A stretch of 32,000 nt of DNA from Candidatus Saccharimonadota bacterium (GTDB lineage Archaea; Nanohalarchaeota; Nanosalinia; Nanosalinales; Nanosalinaceae): the NCBI RefSeq assembly GCF_047555085.1, contig NZ_CP180230.1, forward strand, positions 30,001 to 62,000, read 5' to 3'. The notes under the pieces are model-generated. The model saw nothing but the letters and a program-made list of their open reading frames with translations. It was not told the DNA's origin and ran no database searches. This document shows positions 1-32,000 of the stretch, one piece after another; positions within the stretch are counted from its first letter, which is position 1, and each line of letters opens with the position of its first letter. Position numbers and translations under genes: made by a program.

Positions 1-105
1 TTCGAAGTTTTCGGTGTTGCCGAGGAGCATATAGAAGGCCTCTCTGAATTGCTGGCATCCGAGGAAAAAAAGTTTATCATGGATCGATTGCGGAATCTTG
101 AGTAA
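1..105 (+). CDS. 3' end of an upstream CDS of unknown function (partial)
   Basis: Frame 1 is open from the window edge (FEVFGVAEEHIEGLSELLASEEKKFIMDRLRNLE*) with TAA at 103-105. Only 34 codons are visible and no family was recognised. Confidence 0.35.
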   Translation, partial: FEVFGVAEEHIEGLSELLASEEKKFIMDRLRNLE

Positions 106-135
106 CTAAAAAAGATTGCGTCTTGAGTATAGGAT

Positions 136-1155
136 ATGACACCAAAAAACAGCCGTGAAAAGAAAACTGAAGACCGCCAGAAATTCAACTATGAAGAGTT
201 CGAGGAAGTTCTGGAAGAGATAAAGGAAGAAGACTATGACACGATAGGCCTTCAGGGTCCTGACGGCATAAAGCCTCAGTTGATAGATTATGCTGATCAG
301 CTAGAGGAACATGGATTTGATACTGTTATCATCGGTGCTTCAACTTTCGGAGCCTGCGGTATCGCAGATGAAAAAGCTGAAAGAATGGGGGCAGATGCAC
401 TGATCCATGTAGGCCATACAAGATTCCTTCATCCGGAAAGACAGGACATGGACGATCTAAACGTGTACTATCTTCCATACCGAGAAGATAGGGATCTCAT
501 GGGAGTTCTCAGAGAGCATTACGAGGAGATTGATGCCGAAAAAGTAGGTCTTGTTGGAGTAACACAGTATATGGATAGAGCTGAAGAGGCCCGTGAATTC
601 CTTGAAGACAAGGGATTCGAAGTTGTGGAAGGGAAGACAGGCCTCAGGACAACAGAGCCAGGACAGGTACTCGGATGCGACGCTGGAGCTGCACACAACA
701 TTGCGCATAAAGTAGATGCCTTCGTCTTCCTCGGCAGCGGACACTTCCATCCTTCACAGGTCTCGGAGACAGGTAAGGATATCTATGTTGTAGATCCTTA
801 TGAGGAGCACATTTGGGTAGAGCCAGCTAACTCTCTCGATGACGAGACTCGGGCCGAACACGCACGTGTAATCAAGCATAAAGACAAGAAGAAGTGGGGT
901 ATCGTCACTTCATCCAAGAAAGGCCAGAACTATATGCAGGCGGTACAGATAGCAAAAGAAAAGCTGGAAAAACACGGCAAAGATGTATACGTTTTCGTTG
1001 AAGACAGGATTTTCGAGCCTGACTACAAAGGATTCGGTATAGATATCTACGTCAACTGTGCCTGTCCAAGAATGACAAAGGACTGGCAAGACATGGCTTT
1101 TGTCTCTCCTTCAGCTCTAGATGTTCTGAACGAAGTTGATATAGAGCACGAATAA
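136..1155 (+). CDS. dph2: Diphthamide synthesis protein Dph2 (2-(3-amino-3-carboxypropyl)histidine synthase)
   Basis: 339 aa. Length and layout match archaeal Dph2. Three conserved Cys contexts are present (FGACGI, LGCDAG, NCACPR), consistent with the three-domain 4Fe-4S enzyme. Confidence 0.85.
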   Translation: MTPKNSREKKTEDRQKFNYEEFEEVLEEIKEEDYDTIGLQGPDGIKPQLIDYADQLEEHGFDTVIIGASTFGACGIADEKAERMGADALIHVGHTRFLHPERQDMDDLNVYYLPYREDRDLMGVLREHYEEIDAEKVGLVGVTQYMDRAEEAREFLEDKGFEVVEGKTGLRTTEPGQVLGCDAGAAHNIAHKVDAFVFLGSGHFHPSQVSETGKDIYVVDPYEEHIWVEPANSLDDETRAEHARVIKHKDKKKWGIVTSSKKGQNYMQAVQIAKEKLEKHGKDVYVFVEDRIFEPDYKGFGIDIYVNCACPRMTKDWQDMAFVSPSALDVLNEVDIEHE

Positions 1156-1233
1156 TTCTTGGTTTTCTCCAGTTTTTGGTTCAGTTATCTATCTGCCCTA
1201 ACATATAAAAAGCTGTTACTATGTAATAACAAC

Positions 1234-2193
1234 ATGACTTCTGGCGGTGTGACTCCGGAGAGCAAGAAGACGAAGTTCGGGAAGGTGCCGGATTATCATA
1301 AGGCGAGGAATGAGCTTTCTGGTGAGGATATCGGGGAGTTGGTCGATGATATTTCTGAGTATGAGGGTGATCTATATGGATCTGCTCAGGATGTTGCTAG
1401 AGCTTTCTACGAGGAAGATCCTGTCAAGTACAACAAGAATCAGATGACTGTTCGTGAGACGGCCAAGGAGAATGTTGATAAGCACAGTCAGCCAGGATGG
1501 GCCTGGGAGCTACTTTCTGTATATTCTGAAGACATGGGGAAGAAACTTCTTGATGTGCCAAGTGATGGATCTCATAAAGGCCTGCTTATAGATGAAGATT
1601 TCGAAAAAGTGTTTCTGTATGCGAAGGATGCGGATGGTATTCCTGCGGTAGAGCATGTTGACAGATGGTATGAGAACGGTATTAATGCGCAGTCTCTGGG
1701 ATATGAGCTTCCTGCGGATGAAATGGAGAGGACTGCTCTTGATATAGGCAGAAACGATGAGCTGGGAGAACCTGTTCTCATGATGAACTACAACGGCGAT
1801 ATGGTGCTTGACTCAAAAATTAACGAAATGCTGGAGGATGTCGAAGAGCAGATCCAGGACAGAAACGAATGGGTCAAAGACTCGCAGCCAGAACGCAGAC
1901 AGCACCTAGAAGGAAAAGATGTGGAAGATGTCGAGGCGTGGACAACAGGCCTCGAATTCCTGATTGAAAACGACTATATTGAAAACTGGGGTGTAGAAGA
2001 GTACAAGAGAGGTAAGGATAACACTGCAGTAGATCCAGAGACACTGACCAGAATAATGGTGGATCTAGGAGAGTTCAGGGAGACAGAAGACGATGATGAA
2101 GACTACGACTTCAGCCCTAGAACCACTGGAATAGATGATTCTCCGGGCATGATGCTGTCCAAAGGTTCTGATGATCGTCCAAAAGGTTACTGA
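1234..2193 (+). CDS. Hypothetical acidic protein
   Basis: Long ORF. The in-frame ATG at 1234 is preferred over the TTG at 1159 because the first 25 codons are hydrophobic junk following the dph2 T-runs. An A/T-rich TATA-like catataaaaag lies about 25-30 nt upstream, suggesting a leaderless transcript. No family was recognised. Confidence 0.6.
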   Translation: MTSGGVTPESKKTKFGKVPDYHKARNELSGEDIGELVDDISEYEGDLYGSAQDVARAFYEEDPVKYNKNQMTVRETAKENVDKHSQPGWAWELLSVYSEDMGKKLLDVPSDGSHKGLLIDEDFEKVFLYAKDADGIPAVEHVDRWYENGINAQSLGYELPADEMERTALDIGRNDELGEPVLMMNYNGDMVLDSKINEMLEDVEEQIQDRNEWVKDSQPERRQHLEGKDVEDVEAWTTGLEFLIENDYIENWGVEEYKRGKDNTAVDPETLTRIMVDLGEFRETEDDDEDYDFSPRTTGIDDSPGMMLSKGSDDRPKGY

Positions 2194-2196
2194 GAT

Positions 2197-3387
2197 TCAC
2201 TCCCAGAAACTTTTCTCAAGTAGCTTCTCTCTATCATCGAACTCCTCTTTATCATGAATCATCTCCCGAATCCGCTCCTGACCTCTCGTGAAACCTATCA
2301 TCACAGCACCAACAAGACGATCGCCGTCGAAGAAAAGCCTCCTGTACTCATCATCGGAATATTTCCGTTCAAGGGCCTCTCCACTCCAGTCACCGACAGC
2401 AAGGAACTGTACATCGAAATGACCGACACCATAGGTATTAACATAGTCAAAGGCCTCTTCATTACCTAGCATGTTTTCTGCCGCACATTCTCCCATCTCC
2501 TCGGAGTGATCCCAGGAACCGTTCACCGTCCTCCGCTCAAAAGTAGGAGAATAATACTCAACCATGTTCCCGGCGGCAAAAACATCATCTGAAGAAGTCT
2601 TCAGATACTTATCAGTCCTGATAAGGCCTCCATCGGTCTTCTCAACGTTGATAAACTCGGAGTTAGGTGTCTGTCCTATAGCGACCGCCACAGAATCACA
2701 TTCGATCTTTTCACCGGAGTCGAGGACTGCAGCTGTGACCTTTCCATCCTCTGTCTCGAAATCAGAGGCCTCTGTCTCCGTCATCACGTTTACTCCTTTC
2801 TCTTCAAGTTTTCTGTGTACTATATCCGATCCCTCCTCATCGAGGCCTCTGTGCCACCAGTTGCTCTCTCTGATAAGATAGTATGTCTCCGCATCGTTTT
2901 CAGCGTACGCAACAGCCAGATCGATTCCTAGAAGGCCTCCTCCGATAACTACAGCTTTTTCACACTCTTCTGCATCGTTTTTGATTCTTTCAGCATCTCC
3001 CATGGTCCACATGTAGTGTACGTTATCGTTTCCGTCGTCGAAAGGTAGTTTACGTGGTGAACCTCCTGTGGCGACGAGAAGGCGGTCGTAGGAGAAGTTT
3101 TCGTCACCTGTTTCAACTTTTTTCTCCCCGGTATCGACTTCGGTGACTCTTGTCTCTAGATGTAGATCGATATCCCGTTTCTCGTACCAGGCCTCGTCGT
3201 GGACACGGGCGTACTGCTTCGGCAACGTCCCTTTCATGTAGTTCTTCAGCATTATACGGTTGTACAGAGGCTCGGATTCATCAGTCAGAACCGTGATCTC
3301 TGCCTCTTCATCCTCTTCTCTAAGCTTTTTGGCTGCTGTAGCACCAGCATTACCGTCGCCTATAACCACGAATTTTCTGTCAGACAT
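2197..3387 (-). CDS. FAD/NAD(P)-dependent pyridine nucleotide-disulfide oxidoreductase family protein
   Basis: The N-terminus has a Rossmann dinucleotide motif (KFVVIGDGNAGATAA). A second GxGxxG motif (AVVIGGGLLGIDLA) and a C-terminal FAAGN motif are typical of class-I/II FAD reductases such as NADH oxidase or ferredoxin-reductase-like enzymes. Start set at ATG MSDRK (3387). Confidence 0.8.
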   Translation of the reverse strand: MSDRKFVVIGDGNAGATAAKKLREEDEEAEITVLTDESEPLYNRIMLKNYMKGTLPKQYARVHDEAWYEKRDIDLHLETRVTEVDTGEKKVETGDENFSYDRLLVATGGSPRKLPFDDGNDNVHYMWTMGDAERIKNDAEECEKAVVIGGGLLGIDLAVAYAENDAETYYLIRESNWWHRGLDEEGSDIVHRKLEEKGVNVMTETEASDFETEDGKVTAAVLDSGEKIECDSVAVAIGQTPNSEFINVEKTDGGLIRTDKYLKTSSDDVFAAGNMVEYYSPTFERRTVNGSWDHSEEMGECAAENMLGNEEAFDYVNTYGVGHFDVQFLAVGDWSGEALERKYSDDEYRRLFFDGDRLVGAVMIGFTRGQERIREMIHDKEEFDDREKLLEKSFWE

Positions 3388-3420
3388 AACCAGATTAAGG
3401 CCTCTCAACTTTAAACAAAC

Positions 3421-4179
3421 TTGCACCAAAAATTACCTGTGGAAGCGCTCCTCGCAATCACTGCAGCAGTATTCCTTGGAGGCCTCGTAAAAGGCATCAA
3501 CGGATTCGGCTACGCACTTGTATCAACGCCACTTCTCGCACTGATGATGCCGGTACAGGACGCAGTAGCGCTAATGATAATACCGCTCGTCGCCTCGAAC
3601 ATCGAACTTGCCTCGCAGTCCAGTATCTCCGAACTGGAAAACTGCACGAGAAAATTTTCAGGCATCATAATATCACTTCTGGCAGGAGTCACAGCAGGAA
3701 TGCTCGCCCTGACAAAAATCCCTTCCAGGCCTCTGGAGATAGCTGTAGGCCTCACAGCACTGGTATTTGTACTCTCCCAATTACAGCTCTTCGAGAAATT
3801 TTTCTCCAGAATCTCCACAGTATGCTTCAACACATGGGAGCCTGTAATCGGATTCCTGTCAGGCATCGTATACGGAGCCACAAACGTCGCAGTAACAGTC
3901 GTCGCATACCTCAAATCACAGAATCTCTCCCACAGAAAATTCACCGCAACACTTGCGATAACAATCCTCGGAATCTCGGTTTACAGGGTGTTCCTGGCCG
4001 AGATCACAGGCCTCTACGCAGGAACAGACAGGATAATTTTTTCACTACTGCTTGGTATACCAGCGGTTATAGCAGTCAAGATCGGACAGAGATCCGCTGG
4101 AAAACTTCCGGAGAAAACTGTGGAGAAAATCTCCCTGGTAACGATCGCAGCGATAGGCCTCCGACTTATCACCGGTTGA
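3421..4179 (+). CDS. TauE/SafE (DUF81) family membrane transporter
   Basis: About 250 aa, multi-pass and hydrophobic, with an N-terminal GLVKGINGFGYALVSTPLL motif and a repeated half-architecture typical of TauE/SafE sulfite/anion exporters. The start is uncertain: TTG 3421 or GTG 3439. Confidence 0.7.
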   Translation: MHQKLPVEALLAITAAVFLGGLVKGINGFGYALVSTPLLALMMPVQDAVALMIIPLVASNIELASQSSISELENCTRKFSGIIISLLAGVTAGMLALTKIPSRPLEIAVGLTALVFVLSQLQLFEKFFSRISTVCFNTWEPVIGFLSGIVYGATNVAVTVVAYLKSQNLSHRKFTATLAITILGISVYRVFLAEITGLYAGTDRIIFSLLLGIPAVIAVKIGQRSAGKLPEKTVEKISLVTIAAIGLRLITG

Positions 4180-4253
4180 ATCATAGTCTGAGTGAAGCCC
4201 TCCAGTAAAGTATATTGGATTTATAATAATTACCACCGAACACGAAGTTACAA

Positions 4254-4328
4254 GCGGTGCTGGTGTAGTCTGGCCCATCATTTCACCCTGTCACGGTGAA
4301 GACCCGGGTTCAAATCCCGGGCACCGCG
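4254..4328 (+). tRNA. tRNA-Asp (anticodon GTC)
   Basis: The cloverleaf was read by hand. Acceptor GCGGTGC/GCACCGC; D-arm GGTGTAGTCTGGCCCATCAT as in haloarchaeal tRNA-Asp; anticodon stem TCACC/GGTGA with loop CTGTCAC; T-arm CCGGGTTCAAATCCCGG. No CCA is encoded and there is no intron. A TATA-like tttataataa lies about 25-30 nt upstream. Confidence 0.9.
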
Positions 4329-4384
4329 AACTCGTTTCTCTCATTTTCCTAACTTACTTGAATTTTCTATTGAAACTTCACCGT

Positions 4385-4894
4385 ATGCCTCCGAGCTTTG
4401 AACCAGTGTACTGTCCGTACTGCGGGGAGAAACTGGGATCAACCAGTGTTGAAGGCCGTGAAAGACTTTACTGCGAGGCCTGCGACAGGGTTATCTGGAG
4501 GAACGCAGATCCTGTTGCAGCAGTTATAGTCAGAGAAGATGAAAAAATACTTTTCATAAAGAGAGGTATAGAACCGGGGAAAGGAGAATGGAGTCTGCCG
4601 GCAGGATTCCTGGAGCTCGAGGAATCTCCTTCCGAGGCTGCTGTACGTGAACTTGAGGAAGAGACAGGCCTCAAAGTAGAGGAAGAAGATCTCGAGTTCA
4701 TGGACGCAGTCAATATGGAACGGTTCCCGGGACAGAGACTTGTAGCCACAGTATACACTGTAGAAATAGATCAGGCCTCTGGAAAAATTTCACCAGGTTC
4801 AGACGCTGAAAAGGCCTCCTTCTGGCGTATAAAAGATTTCGAGGAGAGCGATGAAACGCTGAGAAAGCATTTCATCTCGGCTCTAGGCCTCTAA
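4385..4894 (+). CDS. NUDIX hydrolase with N-terminal zinc ribbon (NudC-like architecture)
   Basis: Contains a CPYC...CEAC zinc ribbon followed by a Nudix box: GKGEWSLPAGFLELEESPSEAAVRELEEETGL (GX5EX7REUXEEXGU). ATG at 4385 is preferred over TTG at 4358. Confidence 0.85.
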   Translation: MPPSFEPVYCPYCGEKLGSTSVEGRERLYCEACDRVIWRNADPVAAVIVREDEKILFIKRGIEPGKGEWSLPAGFLELEESPSEAAVRELEEETGLKVEEEDLEFMDAVNMERFPGQRLVATVYTVEIDQASGKISPGSDAEKASFWRIKDFEESDETLRKHFISALGL

Positions 4895-4906: not shown

Positions 4907-5602
4907 TCAAAGTCCGTAGTGATCTGCAACAGTCTCTCTGTCATCCAGAACTACATCGTCATAGACGCGCCGTCCCATCTCCGTTATCTCTACGTTTTCC
5001 AGACTTCCTTCTTCTGTGGCATCGTACTCCAGCAGGCCTACGGTGGAGAGCTGTTCAACTGCATCCATGTATTCTTCAGGCACTTCTCCGTCGTTGACTT
5101 CTTCTCCAAGTATATACAGTACGGGAAGTGCTTCAGGATGGGAGTCTGCCAGCATGTTAAATCCTAATGCATTGTACAGGTTTCCTACTGTGTCTTCTCC
5201 CTCGTAGACTAAGTCTCCATCAGAGGCCTCGAAGTAGCTTGCGGCGATGTGATTATCGTTTACAAGCTCCATTAGCGTGTGATTCGCTTGATCCATCTGT
5301 GTTCTCCAGGTTCCTCCGTATCCGGTCAGTTCCCATCCGTCTGGAGTATTCTGTACCAGTTTTTTCTCCTCCATATCGTCCAGTATATCTCGCAACTGCA
5401 TCTCGAAGTGTCCGAAGTTTTCTCCTGCCTGCCAGCCGCTTGAGCCGGTCTGGAAAAGGCTTTCTATAACGTCATTCATCGTCTCTCCTCTTGAAATACT
5501 TGAGAAAACTCTGATAGGTGTTTGGCCGCCCAGACTGGCGTATATTTCACTTTGCTCCCTGAAAATCGGGTCTCTCTGGATATGTCCGTCAATATTTACC
5601 AT
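4907..5602 (-). CDS. Hypothetical acidic protein
   Basis: Long ORF with no recognised family. Start placed at internal ATG (MVNIDG, 5602) because the 5683 start would leave no promoter space before the divergent cmk gene. Confidence 0.5.
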   Translation of the reverse strand: MVNIDGHIQRDPIFREQSEIYASLGGQTPIRVFSSISRGETMNDVIESLFQTGSSGWQAGENFGHFEMQLRDILDDMEEKKLVQNTPDGWELTGYGGTWRTQMDQANHTLMELVNDNHIAASYFEASDGDLVYEGEDTVGNLYNALGFNMLADSHPEALPVLYILGEEVNDGEVPEEYMDAVEQLSTVGLLEYDATEEGSLENVEITEMGRRVYDDVVLDDRETVADHYGL

Positions 5603-5685
5603 GTAACCCGAATCGCCTCTGAGATTTATTACCTTGACGTAACTTCTATGAAAATCATAAAACAGACAGGGAGTAAATCCCATTT

Positions 5686-6300: not shown

Positions 6301-6312
6301 AGGCCTGAGATT

Positions 6313-6729
6313 ATGACCGGGAGTTACGAGATACTGGATCATCCAGCAGATGCAAAATTCAGGGCATCCGGCGATACACTTGAAGAGGCCTTTTCAGCAA
6401 CTGTGGAGGCCTTCTCTGAGATAGTCCGTGGCGACTCCGGCATGTACAATCACAGGATAAAAGTCGAATCCGAGAATCTGGATGCTCTGCTTTTCGACTT
6501 CCTCGATGAACTGATATTTCTACAGGATTCACGCGGAATAGTTGTTTCCCATGCATCCGAGATGGATATAGAGGAACTGGATGACGGCTGGCGTCTGGAG
6601 GCGAATATCATGACAGATGACATCACTTCAGAAGTCGATTTTATGGATGTCAAGGCCCCGACGTACAGCGAGATGGATGTAGGATTCGAAGACGGACAGT
6701 GGTACGCACAGGCCGTAATCGACATATAG
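6313..6729 (+). CDS. Archease (RtcB activator)
   Basis: 138 aa. The N-terminus YEILDHPADAKFRASGDTLEEAF is the archease signature. The gene lies immediately upstream of rtcB. Confidence 0.85.
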   Translation: MTGSYEILDHPADAKFRASGDTLEEAFSATVEAFSEIVRGDSGMYNHRIKVESENLDALLFDFLDELIFLQDSRGIVVSHASEMDIEELDDGWRLEANIMTDDITSEVDFMDVKAPTYSEMDVGFEDGQWYAQAVIDI

Positions 6730-6794
6730 GCCTAGAAATTTTCCTGTGACAATCTGCATATTCTTTTGTAAAAATTCTTGCACAAAGCTAATTC

Positions 6795-8213: not shown

Positions 8214-8265
8214 CTCTCATGTCTCTCGAAAAAAGTATATCTTTTCGTGTACAGAAATTTTCTCT

Positions 8266-22758: not shown

Positions 22759-23105
22759 TGATTGCAGCAGTAAGACTCAGAGGTTCAGTTGATCTTTCAC
22801 AGCCTGTCAAGGATACTCTCGACAGCCTGAATCTTGATCAGAGGAACAAGTGTGTTCTCATTGATGAAGACAACGAAGCCGCTGTCGGAATGCTTGAGAA
22901 AGTAAGTAACTTTATCACTTACGGAAAGATAAGTGAAGATACAGTCGAAAAAATTGAAGATAAAGAAGGAGAAGCAAGTCCAGGGACATCTCTAGGCCTG
23001 AGGCCTCCATCCGGAGGTTTCAAGGACACCAGGAAACACGTTAACTCTGGTGGCGCACTAGGCGAAAGAGATGATATGGATGAACTTCTAGAGAAGATGC
23101 TTTAA
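22758..23105 (+). CDS. rpl30: 50S ribosomal protein uL30
   Basis: AAVRLRGSVDLSQPVKDTLDSLNL N-terminus. At 115 aa it is shorter than many archaeal L30 proteins. TAATG overlap with uS5. Confidence 0.88.
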   Translation: MIAAVRLRGSVDLSQPVKDTLDSLNLDQRNKCVLIDEDNEAAVGMLEKVSNFITYGKISEDTVEKIEDKEGEASPGTSLGLRPPSGGFKDTRKHVNSGGALGERDDMDELLEKML

Positions 23106-24944: not shown

Positions 24945-24978
24945 AAACAAGACTCGACAATTCAAAGACAAGGAGACA

Positions 24979-25695: not shown

Positions 25696-25706
25696 AAGGA
25701 CCTAAA

Positions 25707-25724
25707 TTTTTCCCCGTTATTTTT
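25707..25724 (+). terminator. Oligo-T tracts after the DUF106 gene
   Basis: T5 at 25707-25711 and T5 at 25720-25724, directly after the stop codon at 25693-25695. Confidence 0.4.
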
Positions 25725-25763
25725 CTCTCGTAGTTAAAAAACTCGGAGGTAAAGAAAGGAAAT

Positions 25764-26720: not shown

Positions 26721-26784
26721 AAACTTCTTCTGATGCTACAGTCCAAATAAAAAAGTGTATAGCTGAAATCAAAATACAGAGGCC

Positions 26785-26790
26785 TTTTTT
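26785..26790 (+). terminator. T6 tract downstream of cbf5, between two AGGCCT copies
   Basis: agAGGCCTTTTTTcctacaAGGCCTtc: the T6 run starts inside the first AGGCCT. The two palindromes could also pair as a 6-bp stem. Confidence 0.35.
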
Positions 26791-26820
26791 CCTACAAGGC
26801 CTTCATCAAATCTGCTACTT

Positions 26821-26906
26821 GCCGAGGTGACTGAGTGGCTAAAGGTGCCACCCTGGAAAGGTGGTGAGCGTTACAGCTCTCCTGGGTTCAAATCCCAGCC
26901 TCGGCG
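26821..26906 (+). tRNA. tRNA-Ser (anticodon GGA)
   Basis: Hand-folded. Acceptor GCCGAGG/CCTCGGC plus discriminator G; anticodon stem CCACC/GGTGG with loop CTGGAAA; long variable arm TGAGCGTTACAGCTCTC; T-arm CTGGGTTCAAATCCCAG. A T5 tract follows at 26914-26918. Confidence 0.9.
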
Positions 26907-26958
26907 TAAATTCTTTTTCTGGCATTTGATGTAAGAAGCTCCATTATCTGCGAGCTTC

Positions 26959-26981
26959 GGGTTCAAATCCCAGCCTCGGCG
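26959..26981 (+). repeat. Exact 23-nt duplicate of the tRNA-Ser 3' end (T-loop plus 3' acceptor)
   Basis: gggttcaaatcccagcctcggcg at 26959-26981 is identical to 26884-26906. It is preceded by a 7-bp hairpin gaagctc-N10-gagcttc. No matching 5' acceptor strand exists, so this is not a second tRNA. Confidence 0.85.
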
Positions 26982-26987
26982 TGTTAA

Positions 26988-27356
26988 CTATTCTTTCTTG
27001 GCGTTTGAGACAAGTATCTCCCTCTTCAAATGGTACTCCTCTTTCTGAAGGGAGGCCGTGTAAAGCGCCACTGCGTAAAGCATCAGTAGAAATGTAACTC
27101 CGATATAGGATGCAATCTGATTGATTATCCTCAGATGCGGTACTCCGAAAGAAGCCGCCACAGAGGTAATCACTCCGGCGTATAACAATGTTTTAATCGA
27201 CATCTGAACCAGTTTCCTGTTCCTGTACTTTTTCCGGGAGGCCTCGTACTCCTCGTATTCATCTGAACTGTAGAACTCTTCATCGTCCTCGAAATGCTGT
27301 CGTAGTTCTATATCAGCACGTCCCAGCGGCGTAAGTCTGAAGATTTGATCTTTCAT
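26988..27356 (-). CDS. Small membrane protein, hypothetical
   Basis: 122 aa with an acidic N-terminal half followed by two predicted TM helices (TLLYAGVITSVAASFGV; IASYIGVTFLLMLYAVALYTA). No family recognised. Confidence 0.55.
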   Translation of the reverse strand: MKDQIFRLTPLGRADIELRQHFEDDEEFYSSDEYEEYEASRKKYRNRKLVQMSIKTLLYAGVITSVAASFGVPHLRIINQIASYIGVTFLLMLYAVALYTASLQKEEYHLKREILVSNAKKE

Positions 27357-27422
27357 ACAAGTCTATTTTTACAGGCCTCTACTTTTATCCTTCGAACAAT
27401 TCCCCGGAACTGAAAATATAAA

Positions 27423-28583
27423 ATGCTTGCAGATGTATTGCTACCTGTGAAAAGCGACAGAAAAATAGATGTTTTTGCTGTTTCTGCAATACTCCTTTTC
27501 GGATCTGTCGTCGGAGCATTCGCCATGTACAGTCACATGGATGAAAGGCTTCAGCAACTAGAGCATGACAATTCTCCGCAGATAATTTACATGAATGGCT
27601 CCGCATCACCGGGACAGGGATTCACGGAGCTTTTTGACAGCCTTGATCAATCAGTAGTCTCGGTATCAGCTCTTGGAGAAGAAAGCTCACAGGGTTCAGG
27701 ATTCGTCTACTCTAAAGAAGGTCATATAGTCACAAATGAGCATGTTATAGACGATGCAGAACGCGTAAAAGTAACTTTTACTGAAGGACGAAGCTACGAT
27801 GCAGAAATCATAGGGATGGATCCTAACTCCGATCTAGCAGTCCTCAAGGTCGATAGAAACAACTTGAGGCCTCTGGATCTCGGAAACATATCTGAAGTGA
27901 AAGTAGGCCAAACTGCAATAGCTATAGGAAATCCATTCGGGCTGAGAGGTACAATGACTTCAGGCATAATATCTCAGAAAGGCAGAACGCTTCCTACAGA
28001 AACAGGATTCTCAATTCCAAATGTTATACAGACCGATGCCGCCATTAATCCCGGGAACTCAGGAGGCCCGCTTCTGAACGCAAAAGGTGAAGTAGTCGGC
28101 GTAAACACTGCTATAGAAAGTAGAACAGGAACATTCTCCGGCATAGGCTTCGCCATACCGGTAAGCCAGGTAAAAATGGTGGTTCCAAGAATGATAGAAG
28201 AAGAATCTGATGTAGAATATCCTTGGCTTGGAGTATCAGGATATACAGTAACTCCTGCGATAGCTGACGCGATGAATATAACAGAGGCCTCAGGTTTCCT
28301 TATTGTAGAGGTTGTAGACGACAGCCCAGCTGAAGAAGCAGGATTTGTAGCAAGTAATACAACAGTTGAAATTAATGGAAGAGATACTTTGATCGGAGGA
28401 GATATAATCAAAGCTATAGACGGAAGAACGGTAGAGGGAACAGGAGATGTTCTTACGTTCCTTCCTAGGTATCACAGGCCCGGAGAAGAGATCAATATCA
28501 CGGTGCTTAGGGATGGAGAGGAGGTAGATCTTCCTGTAGTTCTTGGAAGCAGAAGCTCTAGTGCGGCTGGTAACGTAGAATAG
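27423..28583 (+). CDS. HtrA/DegP-family serine protease with C-terminal PDZ domain
   Basis: N-terminal TM anchor and trypsin-like catalytic triad contexts: VTNEHVI (His), DLAVLKV (Asp), GNSGGPLLN (Ser). PDZ-like GFLIVEVVDDSPAEEAG...GDIIKAIDG. Confidence 0.9.
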   Translation: MLADVLLPVKSDRKIDVFAVSAILLFGSVVGAFAMYSHMDERLQQLEHDNSPQIIYMNGSASPGQGFTELFDSLDQSVVSVSALGEESSQGSGFVYSKEGHIVTNEHVIDDAERVKVTFTEGRSYDAEIIGMDPNSDLAVLKVDRNNLRPLDLGNISEVKVGQTAIAIGNPFGLRGTMTSGIISQKGRTLPTETGFSIPNVIQTDAAINPGNSGGPLLNAKGEVVGVNTAIESRTGTFSGIGFAIPVSQVKMVVPRMIEEESDVEYPWLGVSGYTVTPAIADAMNITEASGFLIVEVVDDSPAEEAGFVASNTTVEINGRDTLIGGDIIKAIDGRTVEGTGDVLTFLPRYHRPGEEINITVLRDGEEVDLPVVLGSRSSSAAGNVE

Positions 28584-29547
28584 CGGCCTTTCCTCCGAGA
28601 TTTTCCAGTCTTTTCCCGGCCTCGTGGTCGATGTGAACGATCTCTACTTCACCGCCCATTTCCTCAACTTTCTTTGCCAGTTCATGTTCCTCCCGGTACT
28701 TTTCCGCTGTCAGAATCAGTTTCTCAACAGCACCTTGATTCACAAGATCGTTCACTGGAGCTCCATATGAAACTTTATCGTCCTCTCTCAAGGCCTCCAT
28801 GAGTTCTTCTATAGTCCTTGACTCATCAGAGATACGTGAACTCTCCACCACTTTGTCCAGAGCACCTCTCTTGATAGCTTCGTTAAGGCCTGTACGTCCG
28901 ATAACGGAAGTATCCTGCATCAAAGTCTTGCTGATTATTTCCTCGTCAAGCATGTTCTTTATCTTGTTCTTCTCAAATCCGGGCCCGCAGAGAACAATAT
29001 GATCAACGTTCCGCGAAGATCTCTTGATAACTTCCTTCACCTGATTGTGAAAGTTTCCACTATCTATCTGATCGCTGTACAGCTTCCCTGGAATATTCAG
29101 ATCAATCTTTGAAAGGTTCTTGATCCCTGACTCCTCCACTATGTAGAAATCGGCTTCTCCTTTCTGCACAAGTACGAAAAGCACTCTGTAAGAGTGATGT
29201 GACTCGGCCTCTTCAAGTCGCTCCCACTCCTCTTCGGAGAAATCCTTCCAGATCTCGAACTCTTTACCGGGCTCCAGATTGAAAGTGTGGTATCCCATCT
29301 CGACATCCTCATCACCTCTCGTGATCTCTCCCGTAACTCTGAGACGGTTCTCCTGGTATTCAACTTTTTCTGTTCTCAGAGTAAGATGCGTCGCCTTCTT
29401 CTCCCTGCTATCTCGTTTCGTCCTCTGTGTAAAGGCCTTAACTGTATCACCTTCCCCGATTATATCTTTCAGGTACCAGAGATCATCCTCGTTTTCTATC
29501 TCTATCCTGACGTATCCGTCGGACCTGTCTGATTTCAATATTTCCAT
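28558..29547 (-). CDS. pelA: Pelota (aPelota/Dom34, ribosome rescue factor)
   Basis: The N-terminus VRIEIENEDDLWYLKDIIGEGDTVKAFTQR is the Pelota signature. 329 aa with an eRF1-like domain layout. It overlaps the htrA 3' end by 26 nt in convergent orientation. Confidence 0.88.
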   Translation of the reverse strand: MEILKSDRSDGYVRIEIENEDDLWYLKDIIGEGDTVKAFTQRTKRDSREKKATHLTLRTEKVEYQENRLRVTGEITRGDEDVEMGYHTFNLEPGKEFEIWKDFSEEEWERLEEAESHHSYRVLFVLVQKGEADFYIVEESGIKNLSKIDLNIPGKLYSDQIDSGNFHNQVKEVIKRSSRNVDHIVLCGPGFEKNKIKNMLDEEIISKTLMQDTSVIGRTGLNEAIKRGALDKVVESSRISDESRTIEELMEALREDDKVSYGAPVNDLVNQGAVEKLILTAEKYREEHELAKKVEEMGGEVEIVHIDHEAGKRLENLGGKAAILRYQPH

Positions 29548-29601
29548 ACTGGAGAATGACCGGCCTACAAATAAAAACCTCCGAAACCCAGTAACTCACA
29601 T

Positions 29602-30750
29602 ATGGCAGAAAGGTTCGGCGTCGTAGTTGCAATAGGCCTGACATTCTTCGGCTTAATGCTTATAGCATCCCAGGATATAGATGTAGGATTTAATTTTGGC
29701 GGCGGCGACCAGCAGGATGATCTTGTAATGGTGTCCGAAAGCTTTGGAGAGCTTGGAGGAGCAACTGAAGATGTCAGAACAACAAGCTTCGGAACATTCA
29801 ACATAGGAGAGGGAATGGGCCAGATACAGGCCTACCAGAACAACAGGGAAACTGTAAGTAACTCTCTTTTCTCTGAGGACAGTATAAGCTTTGAATACAA
29901 TGCAACTCAGCCAGAGAATGCGGAAATATCATTTGAAGTACTGGGAAAGGAAGGCTCAGGAGCGCTATATATCGAGGTAAATGGACAGAGAATATTCGAA
30001 AACCAGCTAGTTACATCCGCTACAGAAGAGATCAACGTATCTTCGGAGCATTTGAGGCCCGGAATCAATAATTTCAAGGTAGGAACTAACAAGGGAGGCC
30101 TCCTGGGATCCACAGAATATGCCTTAGAAGATGTAGAGGCCTATGTGCATGATAGAAGATTCAATGATCACAGGGACAACTTCCAGATATACCAGTACGA
30201 GTTAACTGACTTTGTAGGAGCTAATCTAAGCTTCAACATTCCTGTAGATTCTTCAGTAGTTACAGAGCCTCTTGAAATAGATGTCAACGGTAATGAAGTC
30301 TTCAGCGAAAGATCTGTAAGATCAGATCAATCTGTATCAATAACACCATCCAACTCAAATCTTAATCCAGGCTACAATACTGTAACTTTCTCAACAGAAG
30401 CTAATGCCAGATACACGCTTGAAAATGCGCAGATGGCAGTAAGATATATCGGCACTACGCAAGGAGTTGAAAGAGATCTAGACTTCGAGCTTTCAGAGCA
30501 AGATCTATCGTTCGTAGAGCGTGAAACTACTGCTGAAACTCTGAAGTTTGATTACCAGTTCCTTACCGGAGACAGAGAAATCAGGTTCACGTTAAATGAC
30601 TATAATACTAGTATAAGTCCTGATAATGGGGAGAACGTTCTAGACATTCCTGAAGAAGTTTTCAGGGAGGATAATACTTTGAGTATCGAGGGGCAGGGAG
30701 CATTCACATTAAATGATTTGACTCTTAGCTCCGAGGTGACAGAAGAGTGA
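29602..30750 (+). CDS. Membrane-anchored or secreted protein with three tandem ~75-90-aa repeats (hypothetical)
   Basis: N-terminal hydrophobic anchor MAERFGVVVAIGLTFFGLMLIA. Three related segments follow (about nt 29926-30147, 30226-30447, 30541-30732), sharing the pattern [IL]xF...I[ED]VNGxxxF...L[NR]PGxN...Y[AT]LE. No family recognised. Confidence 0.65.
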   Translation: MAERFGVVVAIGLTFFGLMLIASQDIDVGFNFGGGDQQDDLVMVSESFGELGGATEDVRTTSFGTFNIGEGMGQIQAYQNNRETVSNSLFSEDSISFEYNATQPENAEISFEVLGKEGSGALYIEVNGQRIFENQLVTSATEEINVSSEHLRPGINNFKVGTNKGGLLGSTEYALEDVEAYVHDRRFNDHRDNFQIYQYELTDFVGANLSFNIPVDSSVVTEPLEIDVNGNEVFSERSVRSDQSVSITPSNSNLNPGYNTVTFSTEANARYTLENAQMAVRYIGTTQGVERDLDFELSEQDLSFVERETTAETLKFDYQFLTGDREIRFTLNDYNTSISPDNGENVLDIPEEVFREDNTLSIEGQGAFTLNDLTLSSEVTEE

Positions 30751-32000
30751 GTCTGAAAGGCTGGGCAATCGCAATAATCCTTTCACCTTTCACTCTAGGC
30801 CTCTCGGTACCGCTTTATTTCTGGTACTGGTTCCTGAAGAAAATCGGCAAATGGTACATCAGAGGCCTCAAAATATTCTTCCTGATGCCAGCCGCGATAG
30901 TGCTGTACATAATAGCGCGCATAATAGAGGCTATAGTCGGCGACGTCGAATGGCTGGTATCAATATTCACAGGCGGTATACGAAACATGGAGGCTCAGGG
31001 AGACTCTGCGATTTCAATTCCAGGCCTCAGCCAGTTTAAGCTACGCTACATTGCAGCCTTTGCAGTAGCACTTTACGTTGACTTTGTGCTTTTCATCCAG
31101 CCCCTGGTGTCTGGAGGAGTCCCTGAATTTTCCTTTGCAACTTTCACAAGCTTCTTCGCTGTAGGCCTGCCATTTATCGTTCTTGTAATTTTCAGTGGCC
31201 TTATCAACAAATGGCAAGGAGCAGATATTTCTGGTTCGACTAAAAAACTTGCAGGATCGGGTGTGGCAGCAGGAGCAGGAGCAGCAGGAGCTGCTGCCGC
31301 AGCACCTGGTGAGGCGGTAGGAAGTGCTGCAGGAGGAGCCGCTAATGCTGCCGGCGCTGCAAAAGATGCAGCAGAAATGTATGAAGATATTGAAGTTGCA
31401 GAAGCAGCAGAGACAGTCAGTGCAGGAGGTGCAGAGGCGGCTGGAGCTGAAGGAATAATCGCAGCTGTAGGTGGATCTTCGGTTGCAGCTGTAGGCGGTC
31501 CGATTCTACTGGCTGCTATTGCAGCGTGGATAATATACAGTATAATTGCAATTGTGATCTCTATAATTCTCCTGGGAATGACTTGGGGTTATGTATCACA
31601 GCTACTTCCTATAATTGCAGGGCCGATAATGGGGGCTATAGGCCTAGGCTCATCATATGCCAACTGGTTTGGAGAGAGTACTACTAATCAGTTCGCTCCA
31701 CAGGTTGATACAGCCTTTGCCGAAGAAAAACGCGCCATTCAGCAGGTAGGTGCCAGACTGGGATGTGTCCTAGAAGGCCCACAGTGTCTAAGACAGTGGA
31801 GAATGAACAATACGGTAAGGCCTGGTTCAGAGGCTGTAGGAGAAACTTATGAGCTCAGCATCGATCAGTTTGGACTAGGTGTGGAAAGAATAGATACTGC
31901 ATACAAGGAAGAAAATTATGTTTTACCTGTTAATTTCCTTGTTTCAAATGCTCGTAATGGCTTGAAAGGTATTACGGCCCGTGATGTGAAGTACAAGATA
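30747..32000 (+). CDS. Large multipass membrane protein with Ala/Gly-rich linker (5' part; continues past the window end)
   Basis: This ORF is not in the supplied track because it has no stop. I translated 418 uninterrupted codons from GTG 30747 to the window edge. The GTG overlaps the upstream TGA (GTGA). It has about 4 TM helices, then about 85 aa of A/G-rich low complexity, then 2 more TM helices, then a soluble domain with a CxxxxxxC pair. The track ORF 30851-31039 is out of frame inside it. Confidence 0.7.
   Translation, partial: MSLKGWAIAIILSPFTLGLSVPLYFWYWFLKKIGKWYIRGLKIFFLMPAAIVLYIIARIIEAIVGDVEWLVSIFTGGIRNMEAQGDSAISIPGLSQFKLRYIAAFAVALYVDFVLFIQPLVSGGVPEFSFATFTSFFAVGLPFIVLVIFSGLINKWQGADISGSTKKLAGSGVAAGAGAAGAAAAAPGEAVGSAAGGAANAAGAAKDAAEMYEDIEVAEAAETVSAGGAEAAGAEGIIAAVGGSSVAAVGGPILLAAIAAWIIYSIIAIVISIILLGMTWGYVSQLLPIIAGPIMGAIGLGSSYANWFGESTTNQFAPQVDTAFAEEKRAIQQVGARLGCVLEGPQCLRQWRMNNTVRPGSEAVGETYELSIDQFGLGVERIDTAYKEENYVLPVNFLVSNARNGLKGITARDVKYKI
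31249..31500 (+). repeat. Low-complexity GCA/GGA/GCT-rich tract encoding an Ala/Gly-rich linker
   Basis: Example sequence: gcaggagcaggagcagcaggagctgctgccgcagca... It encodes AGSGVAAGAGAAGAAAAAPGEAVGSAAGGAANAAGAAKDAAE...AGGAEAAGAEGIIAAVGGSSVAAVGG. Confidence 0.8.

Follow-up and report, generated by a model that had tools for sequence, protein, structure and literature searches.

The palindromic hexamer AGGCCT occurs 113 times (exact count) in the window analysed here, a stretch of 32,000 bases from the nanohaloarchaeon Candidatus Nanosalina sp. VS9-1, i.e. once per 283 bp, and ranks first among all hexamers. We regard it as a HIP1-type highly iterated palindrome, subject to a per-site fixation bias that is probably linked to an AGGCCT methyltransferase resident in the genome (rough probability 45%). 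The over-representation is confirmed and is stronger than the initial annotation had claimed (some 110 copies against about 6 expected): dinucleotide-preserving shuffles (n=100) yielded 6.92 +/- 2.63 copies, with a maximum of 14 (z ~40), and the Markov expectation is 7.2 at order 1, 21.7 at order 2 and 53.3 at order 3. The maximal-order (order-4) expectation of 104.8 is an invalid, circular null, because the pentamers AGGCC (158) and GGCCT (134) are mostly AGGCCT itself. According to the table of NGGCCN words, where the combination A..T accounts for 113 copies and each remaining one for at most 17, the full hexamer is the unit of enrichment. Its one-base variants are all scarce, as had been claimed (1-17 copies each in the window), and under the same null the eight loci tested yield no further outlier among palindromic hexamers.

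It is extremely improbable that the excess is a by-product of codon, codon-pair or amino-acid usage, of an RNA-level motif, of a longer repeat element or of an assembly artefact. The order-4 value, formally near the observed 113, and the use of GGC, GCC, AGG and CCT as codons speak for such an origin; however, the 105 copies wholly contained in genes compare with 15.2 +/- 3.5 after synonymous-codon shuffling per gene (maximum 26, n=1000 shuffles) and with 8.5 +/- 2.9 after codon-order shuffling, and a codon or amino-acid by-product is rejected. A coding-only effect is rejected as well, since sites occupy all three frames (AGG-CCT, 16; xAG-GCC-Txx, 40; xxA-GGC-CTx, 49) and also the spacers, with eight copies not wholly genic in 1,865 non-coding bases (0.42 expected, Poisson P = 1.6e-8), or 4.3 per kb non-coding vs 3.5 per kb coding. 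The data support an enrichment that is independent of reading frame, as initially annotated, that extends to intergenic DNA and that is no codon or codon-pair effect. The starts of all sites and the sites of individual interest are as follows.

AGGCCT starts, 36-4885: 36, 246, 639, 1578, 1947, 2451, 2624, 2766, 2843, 2933, 3189, 3398, 3480, 3727, 3747, 4008, 4155, 4476, 4666, 4773, 4812, 4885
AGGCCT starts, 5034-9623: 5034, 5224, 5816, 5862, 5940, 6301, 6386, 6407, 6728, 6880, 7317, 7352, 7441, 7496, 7942, 8187, 8400, 8523, 8684, 8922, 9023, 9048, 9623
AGGCCT starts, 10415-15976: 10415, 10720, 10781, 12166, 12656, 13000, 13064, 13667, 14269, 14517, 14798, 15050, 15082, 15372, 15409, 15690, 15735, 15877, 15976
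AGGCCT starts, 16630-23929: 16630, 16667, 16704, 16734, 17528, 17587, 17856, 18010, 18281, 18702, 19107, 19301, 19399, 19518, 20506, 20863, 21880, 22175, 22587, 22706, 22994, 23001, 23365, 23929
AGGCCT starts, 24494-31818: 24494, 25217, 25424, 25991, 26098, 26299, 26780, 26797, 27239, 27373, 27867, 28285, 28791, 28886, 29433, 29634, 29828, 30096, 30137, 30797, 30863, 31022, 31163, 31640, 31818
246..251, plus strand: frame xxA-GGC-CTx (I-G-L) in dph2 (136-1155, diphthamide synthesis protein)
6301..6306: intergenic, immediately past the TAG stop of a cytidylate-kinase-like gene (5686-6300)
6728..6733: overlaps the TAG stop of the archease gene (6313-6729) and extends into the spacer
9623..9628, plus strand: frame xAG-GCC-Txx (E-A-W), among the few sites present also in an outgroup (L001)
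16630..16739, plus strand: cluster of four copies (spacing 37, 37 and 30 nt) within the 3' portion of a clade-specific gene (15915-16769)
22994..23006, plus strand: near-tandem pair AGGCCT-T-AGGCCT in the rpl30 gene, coding for L-G-L-R-P
26780..26802: two intergenic copies (starts 26780 and 26797), with a conserved promoter-like box on one side and tRNA-Ser (26820-26907) on the other
27373..27378: intergenic, between divergent genes 26988-27356 (minus) and 27423-28583 (plus)
Starts 36, 8523 and 14517: further copies not wholly genic

The example sites cited in the initial annotation (246, I-G-L; 9623, E-A-W; 23001, R-P) are all correct, and the near-tandem pair and the intergenic copies that it listed are present. 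The 113 sites show no periodicity in their spacing, which is essentially random (CV 0.87 vs 0.98 under random placement, P = 0.09). The outgroups have V/L-S-M/L followed by T/S-P at the position of the rpl30 pair, and each of the two copies took several changes to form, some of them at the amino-acid level; L002 has both and L003 none. The spacer before tRNA-Ser contains one copy each in L002 and L003, at differing offsets.

Comparison with related genomes confined the enrichment to three lineages that form one clade; it is absent from seven other Nanosalina-like lineages (copies per kb).

Window (VS9-1): 3.5
L002 type: L002 3.1, L136 3.8
L003 type: L003 1.7, L131 3.0, L132 2.1, L133 2.3
Non-enriched relatives (L001, L004, L006, L008, L009, L130, L134): 0.1-0.4

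GC content is alike across enriched and non-enriched loci, and a GC or codon-usage effect is rejected, since relatives with the same GC and similar codon usage remain at these low densities. An assembly artefact is rejected too: three independent assemblies (NCBI and two ENA series) have AGGCCT within intact orthologous genes. In the relatives the enrichment was found in two separate genomic regions. A longer repeat element is rejected because the flanks hold almost no information. The by-product explanation is already refuted apart from its RNA-level variant, which is helped by the presence of the palindrome in all transcripts; as it reads alike in each of them, gene orientation cannot rule out an RNA-level function.

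The enriched lineages are monophyletic in a neighbour-joining analysis of 2,211 aligned residues (100% bootstrap), and a quartet test of the dph2 region gave 86% support for the same grouping. Third-position identity between them is only 0.50-0.58, i.e. synonymous sites are near saturation, and the trait is kept in all three. The comparison shows a directional, apparently genome-wide force on the DNA that began in the common ancestor of VS9-1 and its two sister lineages. Its per-site strength is moderate: the log-odds shift vs relatives is ~3.7 (VS9-1), ~3.1 (L002 type) and ~2.2 (L003 type).

Synonymous opportunities are filled by AGGCCT in 105 of 140 cases (75%) in the window, 62% in L002, 40% in L003 and 4-12% in five outgroups. 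The initial annotation had put the density in ribosomal-protein genes at about half and had seen in this a DNA-level pressure working against protein constraint. The density is indeed lower in ribosomal-protein operons (2.6 per kb vs 4.0 per kb elsewhere), but the ratio is 0.64, not half; motif-compatible contexts occur there at 3.8 per kb and are 67% filled, compared with 5.0 per kb and 81% in other genes, which agrees with a motif damped at high protein and codon constraint. Motif-compatible peptide contexts are also 1.5 to 2.8 times commoner in the enriched clade: 25 are private to the window (17 filled) and 9 to the nearest outgroups (none filled; P = 0.009). Amino-acid conservation at motif codons is not reduced compared with other codons. 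These alignments show a force that mainly uses synonymous positions and also nudges proteins toward R-P, [E/K/Q]-A-[F/L/S/Y/C/W] and x-G-L.

Such features could also arise if the DNA import or recombination machinery of the clade preferred fragments with AGGCCT, possibly only methylated ones, and word-bearing alleles replaced others by molecular drive, as proposed likewise for the USS of Pasteurellaceae and the DUS of Neisseria. We consider this possible but unlikely; it can overlap with the methyltransferase-linked reading and need not replace it. The per-site force with any neighbouring word as source, the saturation of available contexts, the lower density in conserved genes and the surplus of compatible peptides all fit an uptake signal, as does the dependence of nanohaloarchaea on external nucleotides or DNA. 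The undiminished conservation at motif codons matches what is reported for USS; uptake sequences roughly double their cognate tripeptides and are located at poorly conserved positions (PMC2817400). For HIP1, two preprints report a methylation-dependent boost of transformation and a correlation with DNA-transfer machinery (bioRxiv 10.1101/2024.09.10.611283; bioRxiv 10.64898/2026.06.24.733823), again in favour of such a signal. However, we estimate from base composition that a hexamer would separate self from the GC-rich haloarchaeal host only ~ten-fold, and we saw no competence genes in the window. To our knowledge, the known uptake sequences measure 9-12 nt and lack palindromic symmetry, and neither natural transformation nor sequence-specific uptake has been demonstrated in DPANN archaea.

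L002 retains 72% of the window's sites; the figure is 24% for control hexamers containing four G/C and 21% for palindromic hexamers other than AGGCCT. Conservation is 88-100% at all six motif positions, and 51 of 61 conserved-amino-acid codons with the third base in the motif are identical, vs 30.3 expected from the same codons elsewhere. Site sharing between lineages (77%) is nearly as for two independently saturated genomes. Among the 61 contexts common to the window and the L002 type the motif is present in both in 43, vs 40.1 if independent (Fisher P = 0.028); thus, sharing hardly exceeds what saturation predicts and cannot discriminate between selection and drive. Since filling is near independent, particular AGGCCT positions seem not to matter, which weighs against an abundant clade-specific symmetric chromatin, nucleoid or segregation protein that binds AGGCCT and whose density of sites is maintained by natural selection. 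This explanation is in our opinion quite unlikely: filling of 75% of contexts with random spacing is unlike selection for a given density or spacing, and individually effective selection on thousands of sites needs a very large effective population size, even though the palindrome and its symmetric flank preference (see below) suit a dimeric binder and the trait is clade-specific and long-lived despite the low third-position identity. For HIP1, Xu et al. argue for a role in chromosome structure (PMC5861425), which counts on the same side.

The one-off outgroup states (n=111) are AGGACT (34), AGACCT (27), AGGCCG (15), AAGCCT (9), AGGCAT (8), AGGCCA (7), AGCCCT (6), ACGCCT (4) and AGGCCC (1), roughly in proportion to the availability of these words, and most sites are at least two changes away from the outgroup (2, 3, 4 and 5 changes in 127, 79, 30 and 14 comparisons). 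AGGCCT sites thus arose from all neighbouring words, with some amino-acid changes making new contexts. The force they show works from any neighbouring word and by any type of substitution, damped by protein and codon constraint; it favours the fixation of changes that create AGGCCT and disfavours those that destroy it, in any frame and in spacers.

The initial annotation had suggested an m5C methylase combined with VSP-like T:G mismatch repair. As the sole cause, with Vsr- or Mig-like repair over-correcting T to C in near-cognate words, this is disfavoured and very unlikely. Just 36 of the 111 one-step differences are convertible by T-to-C (or A-to-G) correction at either cytosine, and 74 need transversions (e.g. 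GGA to GGC, GCA to GCC). The origin from all neighbours, the two-thirds share of transversions among one-step differences and the context-creating amino-acid changes make VSP-like repair alone insufficient; moreover, most sites lie beyond a single step, positions 1, 2, 5 and 6 are conserved as much as the cytosines, and the window has no vsr-like gene. AGGTCT/AGACCT is admittedly depleted more than any other one-off class (0.50x, P = 0.006) and is the source most efficiently used for its availability (27 occurrences, 0.68 per kb), but the transversion neighbour AGGACT/AGTCCT is nearly as depleted (0.67x, P = 0.02). An archaeal precedent for a GGCC methylase with a T:G glycosylase is provided by M.MthTI and Mig.Mth of plasmid pFV1. 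The Dcm/Vsr effect in E. coli stays far below 75% of opportunities filled, and m4C does not deaminate to thymine. The sole AGGCCT methylation that we found in the literature is m4C, not m5C (PMC6092372), and an enzyme predicted by REBASE to be AGGCCT-specific actually makes m4C at GGGCCC (PMC6700114).

Depletion is seen for both inner one-off variants, and a 5.4x enrichment (P = 1e-11) for the outer variant AGGCCC/GGGCCT. The flanks favour GAGGCCTC, weakly and symmetrically: 67% of sites have R at -1, and 67% have Y at +1. The preference also holds where the choice of base is purely synonymous, CTC making up 21 of the 49 Leu codons that follow A-GGC-CT (43%) vs 102 of 652 (16%) elsewhere (P = 1.4e-5); the RAGGCCTY preference suspected earlier is real, though weak. 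The exact palindrome, the strict central GGCC, the tolerance at the outermost bases and the weak symmetric flanks together indicate that double-stranded DNA is recognised by a putative symmetric, Type-II-like protein. In cyanobacterial HIPs, one-off deviations are biased toward the outer positions and extensions remain palindromic (PMC4390886).

By analogy with cyanobacterial HIPs, the alternate forms of which each co-occur with a cognate methyltransferase (PMC4390886), the most likely candidate recogniser would be a cytosine methyltransferase specific for AGGCCT, resident in the genome and probably an orphan. Neither the 32-kb window nor the gene lists of clade contigs (~56 kb in all) contain a DNA methyltransferase, restriction enzyme, Vsr or mismatch glycosylase, which is weak counter-evidence because this covers a small part of the 1.05-Mb genome. 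The nanohaloarchaeon N. occultus has an active cytosine methyltransferase whose target is a palindromic hexamer (PMC10266531, PMC11001535). In this nanohaloarchaeon, the only one with a known methylome, the methylated palindrome is rare, with 140 sites per genome, unlike the iterated AGGCCT of VS9-1 (PMC10266531); therefore, a methyltransferase alone does not produce enrichment.

A methyltransferase-linked fixation bias could operate in two ways. A methylation-directed repair ratchet of the Elhai type would fix new methylatable sites and protect existing ones; alternatively, methylated sites may label the DNA as self and so help it to recombine, be taken up or survive. HIP1 itself shows enrichment and conservation in every frame as well as outside coding DNA (PMC5861425). 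We found no earlier report of a HIP1-like palindrome in archaea; the cyanobacterial HIP1, long unexplained, resembles the AGGCCT of the VS9-1 clade, which fills about three quarters of the places that the proteins permit.

The 32,000-base window contains 113 copies of the palindromic hexamer AGGCCT (one copy per 283 bp), more than of any other of the 4,096 hexamers, which bears out the extreme over-representation asserted in the initial annotation. Dinucleotide-preserving shuffles predict 6.92 +/- 2.63 copies (largest value 14), corresponding to a 16-fold excess, and Markov models of order 1, 2 and 3 predict 7.2, 21.7 and 53.3 copies, respectively. The maximal-order (order-4) Markov null yields 104.8 copies and was rejected as circular, because most copies of the constituent pentamers AGGCC (158) and GGCCT (134) lie within the hexamer itself. 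The valid tests are the comparison of all NGGCCN words, in which the flank pair A..T accounts for 113 copies and every other pair for 1-17, and the codon shuffles: with synonymous codons shuffled within each gene, 15.2 +/- 3.5 copies (maximum 26 in 1000 shuffles) are expected against 105 observed in genes (7-fold), and with codon order shuffled the expectation is 8.5 +/- 2.9. The 18 one-base variants, which had been described as far rarer, are indeed all rare, with 1-17 copies each.

Under the synonymous-codon null AGGCCT alone stands out among palindromic hexamers in eight loci, with z-scores of 21 in the window and of 14 and 7 in L002 and L003 (syntenic contigs of two relatives). TCCGGA, CTGCAG and others, mildly enriched in the relatives according to the dinucleotide model, disappear under this null (z ~2). 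Other palindromes are depleted by the same measure, namely CTTAAG (1 copy against 8.9 expected), TTATAA (0 against 5.5) and TTCGAA (10 against 18.3) in the window and GAATTC (0 against 8.6) in L008, another relative; such depletion is typical of restriction pressure in the past and contrary to the behaviour of AGGCCT. Restriction-site avoidance predicts a rare target, and the 16-fold over-representation is opposite in sign.

Gene calling assigned 94% of the window to 44 genes. Among the features of the window are dph2, rtcB, archease, the large operon of ribosomal proteins, secY, truB, two tRNAs and several proteins without a family match. AGGCCT occurs in all three codon phases (AGG|CCT 16 sites, xAG|GCC|Txx 40, xxA|GGC|CTx 49) and, as had also been claimed, in intergenic DNA: eight copies lie outside genes or across gene ends in 1,865 non-coding bases (0.42 expected, P = 1.6e-8), a density of 4.3 per kb compared to 3.5 per kb in genes. 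The individual sites that the initial annotation cited as examples are correct without exception. Compositional, RNA-level or artefactual explanations of a word that exceeds the codon shuffles in genes and is enriched in spacers as well strike us as extremely improbable. The spacing of the sites in the 32-kb window cannot be told from random (coefficient of variation 0.87 vs 0.98 for random placement, P = 0.09), and a search of the window for spacing regularity and for codon-phase, helical or other short-range periodicity revealed none. A dispersed repeat element of the MITE or REP type was considered and rejected, since the copies share no extended flanks and the sites arose by substitution in aligned orthologous codons, not by insertion.

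The flanks carry little information except for a symmetric preference for G/A at position -1 and C/T at +1, in agreement with the purine/pyrimidine preference noted before; beyond +/-1 they are near background composition. The preference persists at a synonymous position, as the Leu codon that follows A-GGC-CT is CTC in 21/49 cases (43%) and in 102/652 (16%) elsewhere (P = 1.4e-5). In one of the spacers we observed a promoter-like box, AAATAAAAAAGTG (window 26745-26765), located ~55-75 nt upstream of tRNA-Ser (26820-26907), which reads as an extended CCAAATAAAAAAGTGTA in most lineages and is conserved across all Nanosalina-like lineages compared (L001-L009), with a distance to the tRNA that differs between them. 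The spacer downstream of this box is variable, with AGGCCT at differing offsets in the window (two sites), L002, L003 and L008.

The availability of the word in genes can be expressed as the number of contexts, i.e. amino-acid strings able to encode AGGCCT without a change of the protein: R-P, [E/K/Q]-A-[F/L/S/Y/C/W], and x-G-L with x having a codon that ends in A. The word is present in 105 of the 140 contexts of the window, and the log-odds shifts calculated from the filling are ~3.7 for the window, ~3.1 for L002 and ~2.2 for L003. Three proteins of the window (SecY, Dph2 and a hypothetical protein) match those of Candidatus Nanosalina sp. VS9-1, a nanohaloarchaeon of the DPANN archaea, at 100% identity. 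The relatives were sampled as syntenic contigs, found by exact-protein matches and by one genome scan, which yielded only a relative 67% identical, and are grouped below.

AGGCCT density and fraction of contexts filled
Window (VS9-1): 3.53 per kb; 105/140 contexts filled (75%)
L002 type: 3.13 (L002) and 3.83 (L136) per kb; 62% filled in L002
L003 type: 1.73 (L003), 3.01 (L131), 2.06 (L132) and 2.28 (L133) per kb; 40% filled in L003
Other Nanosalina-like lineages (L001, L004, L006, L008, L009, L130, L134; GC 41-50%): 0.09-0.42 per kb; 4-12% filled in five outgroups

The enriched lineages form a clade: a neighbour-joining tree of 2,211 aligned residues from 11 proteins groups the window, L002 and L003 with 100% bootstrap support and the window with L002 with 99.5%. 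The two L002-type contigs are close to each other (ribosomal protein S8 100% and L6 97% identical). The dph2 region at first appeared to contradict the tree, as the non-enriched L130 and L134 are nearer to the window in raw identity than the enriched L131; we resolved this as the effect of a long branch, because of which the L003 type ranks misleadingly behind non-enriched lineages, and a quartet test of the region placed the window with L131, apart from L130 and L134, in 86% of replicates. Compared to the window and L002, the L003 type has a lower GC content (41%), a larger protein distance to the outgroups (0.25-0.26; 0.21-0.24 for the window) and a weaker saturation (40%). At third codon positions the identity of the window to the L002 type is no more than 0.57-0.58, and by this low value the lineages of the clade are old. 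The simplest reading of the tree would be a single origin of the enrichment on the stem of the clade and its persistence since then. In a SecY comparison no member of the clade from JGI was closer to the window than 84%.

Among the matches listed from a scan of viral contigs for three clustered AGGCCT sites, which comprised chance matches and tandem repeats, no nanohaloarchaeal virus could be recognised. Two unrelated contigs classified as viral may represent further cases of AGGCCT enrichment in other hosts: L098 (IMGVR_UViG_3300031867_007516, 10.8 kb, GC 52%), with 22 dispersed copies against 4.5 expected, which encodes plasmid-like Rep3, ParA, an integrase and a DnaB-primase, and the poorly coding L011 (IMGVR_UViG_3300029432_000018, first 3.6 kb, GC 36%), with 13 copies against 1.2 expected.

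Filling is not uniform within the window. The initial annotation had put the density in the ribosomal-protein genes at about half of that elsewhere; the damping is genuine, with 3.8 vs 5.0 contexts per kb, 67% vs 81% of them filled and 2.6 vs 4.0 sites per kb, and it falls short of one half. This supports a DNA-level pressure that is damped by protein and codon constraint. Within the ribosomal-protein operon, between SUI1 and rps17 (window 14560-16769), the gene for RNase P p29 (15649-15924) is flanked by a gene for an LD-carboxypeptidase (Peptidase_S66) and by an ORFan of 284 aa; the pair is present in the AGGCCT-rich clade (window, L003 1-3215, L136 942-3122) and absent at the matching position in L008 and L009. 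The ORFan (15915-16769) has 8 homologues among 5.8 billion proteins and many invariant residues, and we weighed a role for it in binding or cutting AGGCCT and rejected this, as its N-terminal signal or membrane segment makes it look like a secreted protein. The ribosomal protein L24 homologue (17698-18471; Ribosomal_L26/KOW family in relatives) comprises 257 aa with long acidic stretches (DEEEEMMQ, DEEDIEDM) and is far longer than the typical archaeal L24; among relatives its length varies (256-287 aa).

Contexts themselves are more frequent in the window (4.6 per kb) than in the outgroups (2.7-3.4 per kb). Of contexts private to one side, 25 belong to the window (17 of them filled) and 9 to the nearest outgroups (none filled; P = 0.009), and against L001 and L134 the numbers are 34 and 19 (P = 0.053). 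By the 25 vs 9 asymmetry, the pressure also pulls protein sequences toward codable contexts, as uptake sequences do (PMC2817400). This asymmetry in newly created contexts is the sole visible effect on proteins: at positions where the outgroups are unanimous, the motif codons show no excess of amino-acid replacements (7.8% vs 10.4%).

These features bring to mind an uptake or self-recognition drive, a reading that partly overlaps with the methyltransferase-linked one considered below. The DNA uptake sequences of Pasteurellaceae (USS) and Neisseriaceae (DUS) are 9-12 nt long, not palindromic and tied to a demonstrated competence machinery, and to our knowledge neither such length, nor asymmetry, nor a link to competence is known for nanohaloarchaea. 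As is the case here, USS and DUS are present in thousands of copies per genome, within coding regions and in several frames, result from a per-site bias (molecular drive), prefer weakly constrained genes and positions and measurably raise the frequency of the peptides they encode (PMC2817400). The 3.5 AGGCCT sites per kb, the raised number of contexts, the deficit of sites in ribosomal-protein operons and the amino acids at motif codons, which are as conserved as others, all correspond to this pattern. Moreover, HIP1, the highly iterated palindrome of cyanobacteria, has been tied to methylation-dependent transformation in one preprint (bioRxiv 10.1101/2024.09.10.611283) and to DNA-transfer machinery in another (bioRxiv 10.64898/2026.06.24.733823). 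However, a palindromic hexamer with little flank information is unlike the long asymmetric uptake words, and we regard an uptake drive as unlikely.

How the sites arose was read from codon alignments of orthologues, which give the outgroup states at the positions of clade sites. The numbers of outgroup states at a distance of 0 to 6 changes from AGGCCT are 16, 111, 127, 79, 30, 14 and 1, i.e. most are two or more changes away. The one-off states, whose counts pool several outgroups per site and so are not independent events, are AGGACT (34), AGACCT (27), AGGCCG (15), AAGCCT (9), AGGCAT (8), AGGCCA (7), AGCCCT (6), ACGCCT (4) and AGGCCC (1), roughly in proportion to the frequency of each word in the outgroups. 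Transversions, typically GGA -> GGC or GCA -> GCC, are required for 74 of these 111 states. The one-base variants left in the clade differ in their fate according to the position of the mismatch.

Frequency of one-base variants in the clade relative to the outgroups
AGACCT/AGGTCT, inner position: 0.50x (P = 0.006)
AGGACT/AGTCCT, inner position: 0.67x (P = 0.02)
AAGCCT/AGGCTT, second or fifth base: 1.3x
AGGCCC/GGGCCT, outermost position: 5.4x (P = 1e-11)

These ratios indicate that recognition tolerates the least deviation in the central GGCC and is looser at the outermost base. AGGCCC/GGGCCT is found 62 times in 61.8 kb of the window, L002 and L003 and 16 times in 86.7 kb of outgroup loci, and GGGCCC is not enriched (2 copies in the window); the excess of the former may reflect either the relaxed recognition of the outermost base or an uncorrected mutational halo. 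From the symmetry of the word, its restriction-site-like length, the tolerance graded from centre to edge and the symmetric flanks we infer that the duplex DNA is recognised by a symmetric, Type-II-like protein.

The initial annotation had listed, as one of three possible mechanisms, an m5C methylase combined with very-short-patch (VSP, Dcm/Vsr-like) repair of T:G mismatches. The bias caused by Dcm and Vsr in E. coli, a modest effect limited to T-to-C corrections, likewise makes a methylated palindrome commoner and its T:G-derived neighbour rarer, and AGGTCT/AGACCT is in fact halved here; however, the transversion neighbour AGGACT/AGTCCT is depleted likewise. T-to-C (or A-to-G) correction is compatible with 36/111 one-off states, two thirds of the one-step sources being transversions, all six positions of the motif are equally conserved, and the enrichment, which reaches saturation, is too great in magnitude. 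In addition, the only methylation of AGGCCT we found in the literature is m4C, in P. luminescens, where the genome has 184 sites (PMC6092372). As sole driver the proposed pair thus fails on substitution spectrum, conservation and magnitude, and we consider VSP-like repair acting by itself very unlikely.

Comparison of the window with L002 revealed that 72% of the window sites are also AGGCCT at the aligned position, compared to 24% for control hexamers that contain four G/C bases and 21% for the remaining palindromic ones, and with L136 added 43/56 window sites (77%) are shared. Among codons for conserved amino acids whose third base lies in the motif, 51/61 are identical against 30.3 expected from the same codons elsewhere, and each of the six motif positions is 88-100% conserved. 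Nonetheless, this sharing is almost entirely what two saturated genomes would show: of 61 contexts common to the window and the L002 type, 43 are filled in both, compared to 40.1 if filling were independent (Fisher P = 0.028), and for the L003 type the numbers are 20 and 17.2 (P = 0.08). Sharing is proof of a continuing force in each lineage and gives no pointer to particular sites mattering, nor can it separate selection from a drive exerted by repair or recombination. Since saturation alone can yield high conservation of sites between genomes, the conservation argument used for HIP1 cannot by itself separate the two either. We find a binding site for a nucleoid protein, kept by selection, improbable. 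What the data document is a real, DNA-level fixation bias toward AGGCCT, specific to the clade and independent of the genome region, which acts from any neighbouring word and has come near saturation.

Among known systems HIP1 (GCGATCGC) is the closest. It is also a short GC-rich palindrome of extreme abundance (about one per 0.3-3 kb; PMC5861425, PMC4390886), enriched and conserved in all frames and in spacers (PMC5861425), and accompanied, as are the alternate HIPs, by a methyltransferase of matching specificity, by deviations at outer positions and by palindromic extensions (PMC4390886). AGGCCT shares with it the enrichment in all three frames and non-coding DNA, a far higher rate of sharing at orthologous positions than control palindromes show, a stronger conservation of its codons within the motif than elsewhere, single-base deviations at the outermost positions, weak extensions that stay palindromic (G at -1, C at +1) and the restriction to a lineage. 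It differs in being a hexamer and not an octamer, and in its host, an archaeon (a DPANN symbiont with a genome of ~1 Mb) outside cyanobacteria. The 16-fold enrichment over composition lies close to the lower limit of the 15-300x given for HIP1 (Xu et al. 2018, PMC5861425), whereas the absolute density is higher (~3,500 per Mb vs 300-2,700 per Mb), and for AGGCCT the near-saturation of coding opportunities (75%) and a sharing close to independent saturation could be shown. This comparison is one of sequence features, and the chromosomal periods of HIP1 (10-90 kb) are of a scale that calls for more than a 32-kb window.

The alternate HIPs of HIP1-poor cyanobacteria (rCCGGy in Oscillatoria PCC 10802, GCsGC in Cyanothece PCC 7822, GrCGyC in Calothrix PCC 7103) are, like AGGCCT, sporadic, lineage-restricted palindromes that resemble restriction sites (5-6 nt), with an over-representation on a par with that of HIP1 (PMC4390886). 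Here the word and the domain of life are different, the enrichment marks a whole clade, with three or more lineages that diverged deeply, instead of a single strain, and the counterpart of the matching methyltransferase found with each alternate HIP is a predicted one. AGGCCT works like a HIP, and constitutes a new instance outside the described taxon.

By analogy, we regard a methyltransferase-linked system of the HIP type as the main reading, with a probability of about 0.45. In the methylation-directed repair ratchet of Elhai, any mutation that creates a methylatable site would be fixed and existing sites would be protected, which fits both the origin of AGGCCT from any neighbour and its maintenance. 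Candidatus Nanohalococcus occultus, a nanohaloarchaeon of a different genus (SecY 68-69% identical to that of the window), has an active Dcm-like Type II methyltransferase that methylates cytosine in the palindromic hexamer GDGCHC and may even act on the DNA of the host (PMC10266531, PMC11001535). However, GDGCHC is rare, with 140 copies in the genome, and is not iterated as AGGCCT is, which argues that a methyltransferase alone is not sufficient. The 32-kb window encodes no DNA methyltransferase, restriction enzyme, Vsr or glycosylase, none of these is among the listed genes of the clade contigs, and NCBIfam and PADLOC gave nothing relevant for the window proteins that lack a Pfam match. The remaining probability we leave to mechanisms outside the five readings discussed here.

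Immediately downstream of truB, several relatives encode a class-I SAM-dependent methyltransferase of ~210 aa (TehB/Methyltransf_11/25-like), which belongs to no recognisable DNA methyltransferase family. Neither the equivalent interval of the window (26720-26988, tRNA-Ser only) nor L003 has this gene.

TehB-like methyltransferase genes
L002, 7149-7799
L008, 13225-13863
L009, 13203-13832
L004, 10315-10686

Full-text searches of the literature revealed no report of AGGCCT enrichment in nanohaloarchaea or in archaea at large, nor of strain VS9-1, and broader searches for over-represented palindromic words or hexamers in archaea found nothing relevant. What is new is that the HIP-like word belongs to another domain of life, differs in its motif and has an onset that can be dated. 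We speculate, with considerable doubt, that a DPANN clade independently evolved a HIP-like system in which a resident enzyme, probably an AGGCCT methyltransferase, is combined with a bias of repair or recombination. Together they would rewrite the whole 1-Mb genome toward the site of the enzyme until three quarters of the codable positions are filled, and so dense a mark may help to distinguish the DNA of the symbiont from that of the host while nanohaloarchaea and haloarchaea are in intimate cell-to-cell contact. In that case AGGCCT would be the first highly iterated palindrome of an archaeon.

Highly iterated palindromes have resisted explanation for ~30 years, and whether HIP1 is kept up by selection, a repair ratchet or an uptake signal is disputed (PMC4390886, PMC5861425, bioRxiv 10.64898/2026.06.24.733823). 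The nanohaloarchaeal word is a useful case, being independent, from another domain of life and in a genome of only ~1 Mb. AGGCCT also provides a ready compositional marker for binning members of the clade in hypersaline metagenomes. Its onset is datable, as the enrichment is present in three lineages and absent from their closest relatives of similar GC content, and its strength is graded (40%, 62% and 75% of contexts filled), so the question becomes testable by comparative gene content. If the onset indeed falls on a single branch of the tree, the genomes on either side should reveal the causal gene, a comparison so far impossible for HIP1, which is ancient in cyanobacteria; a single methylome, added to the gene content on both sides of the onset, could pinpoint the cause.
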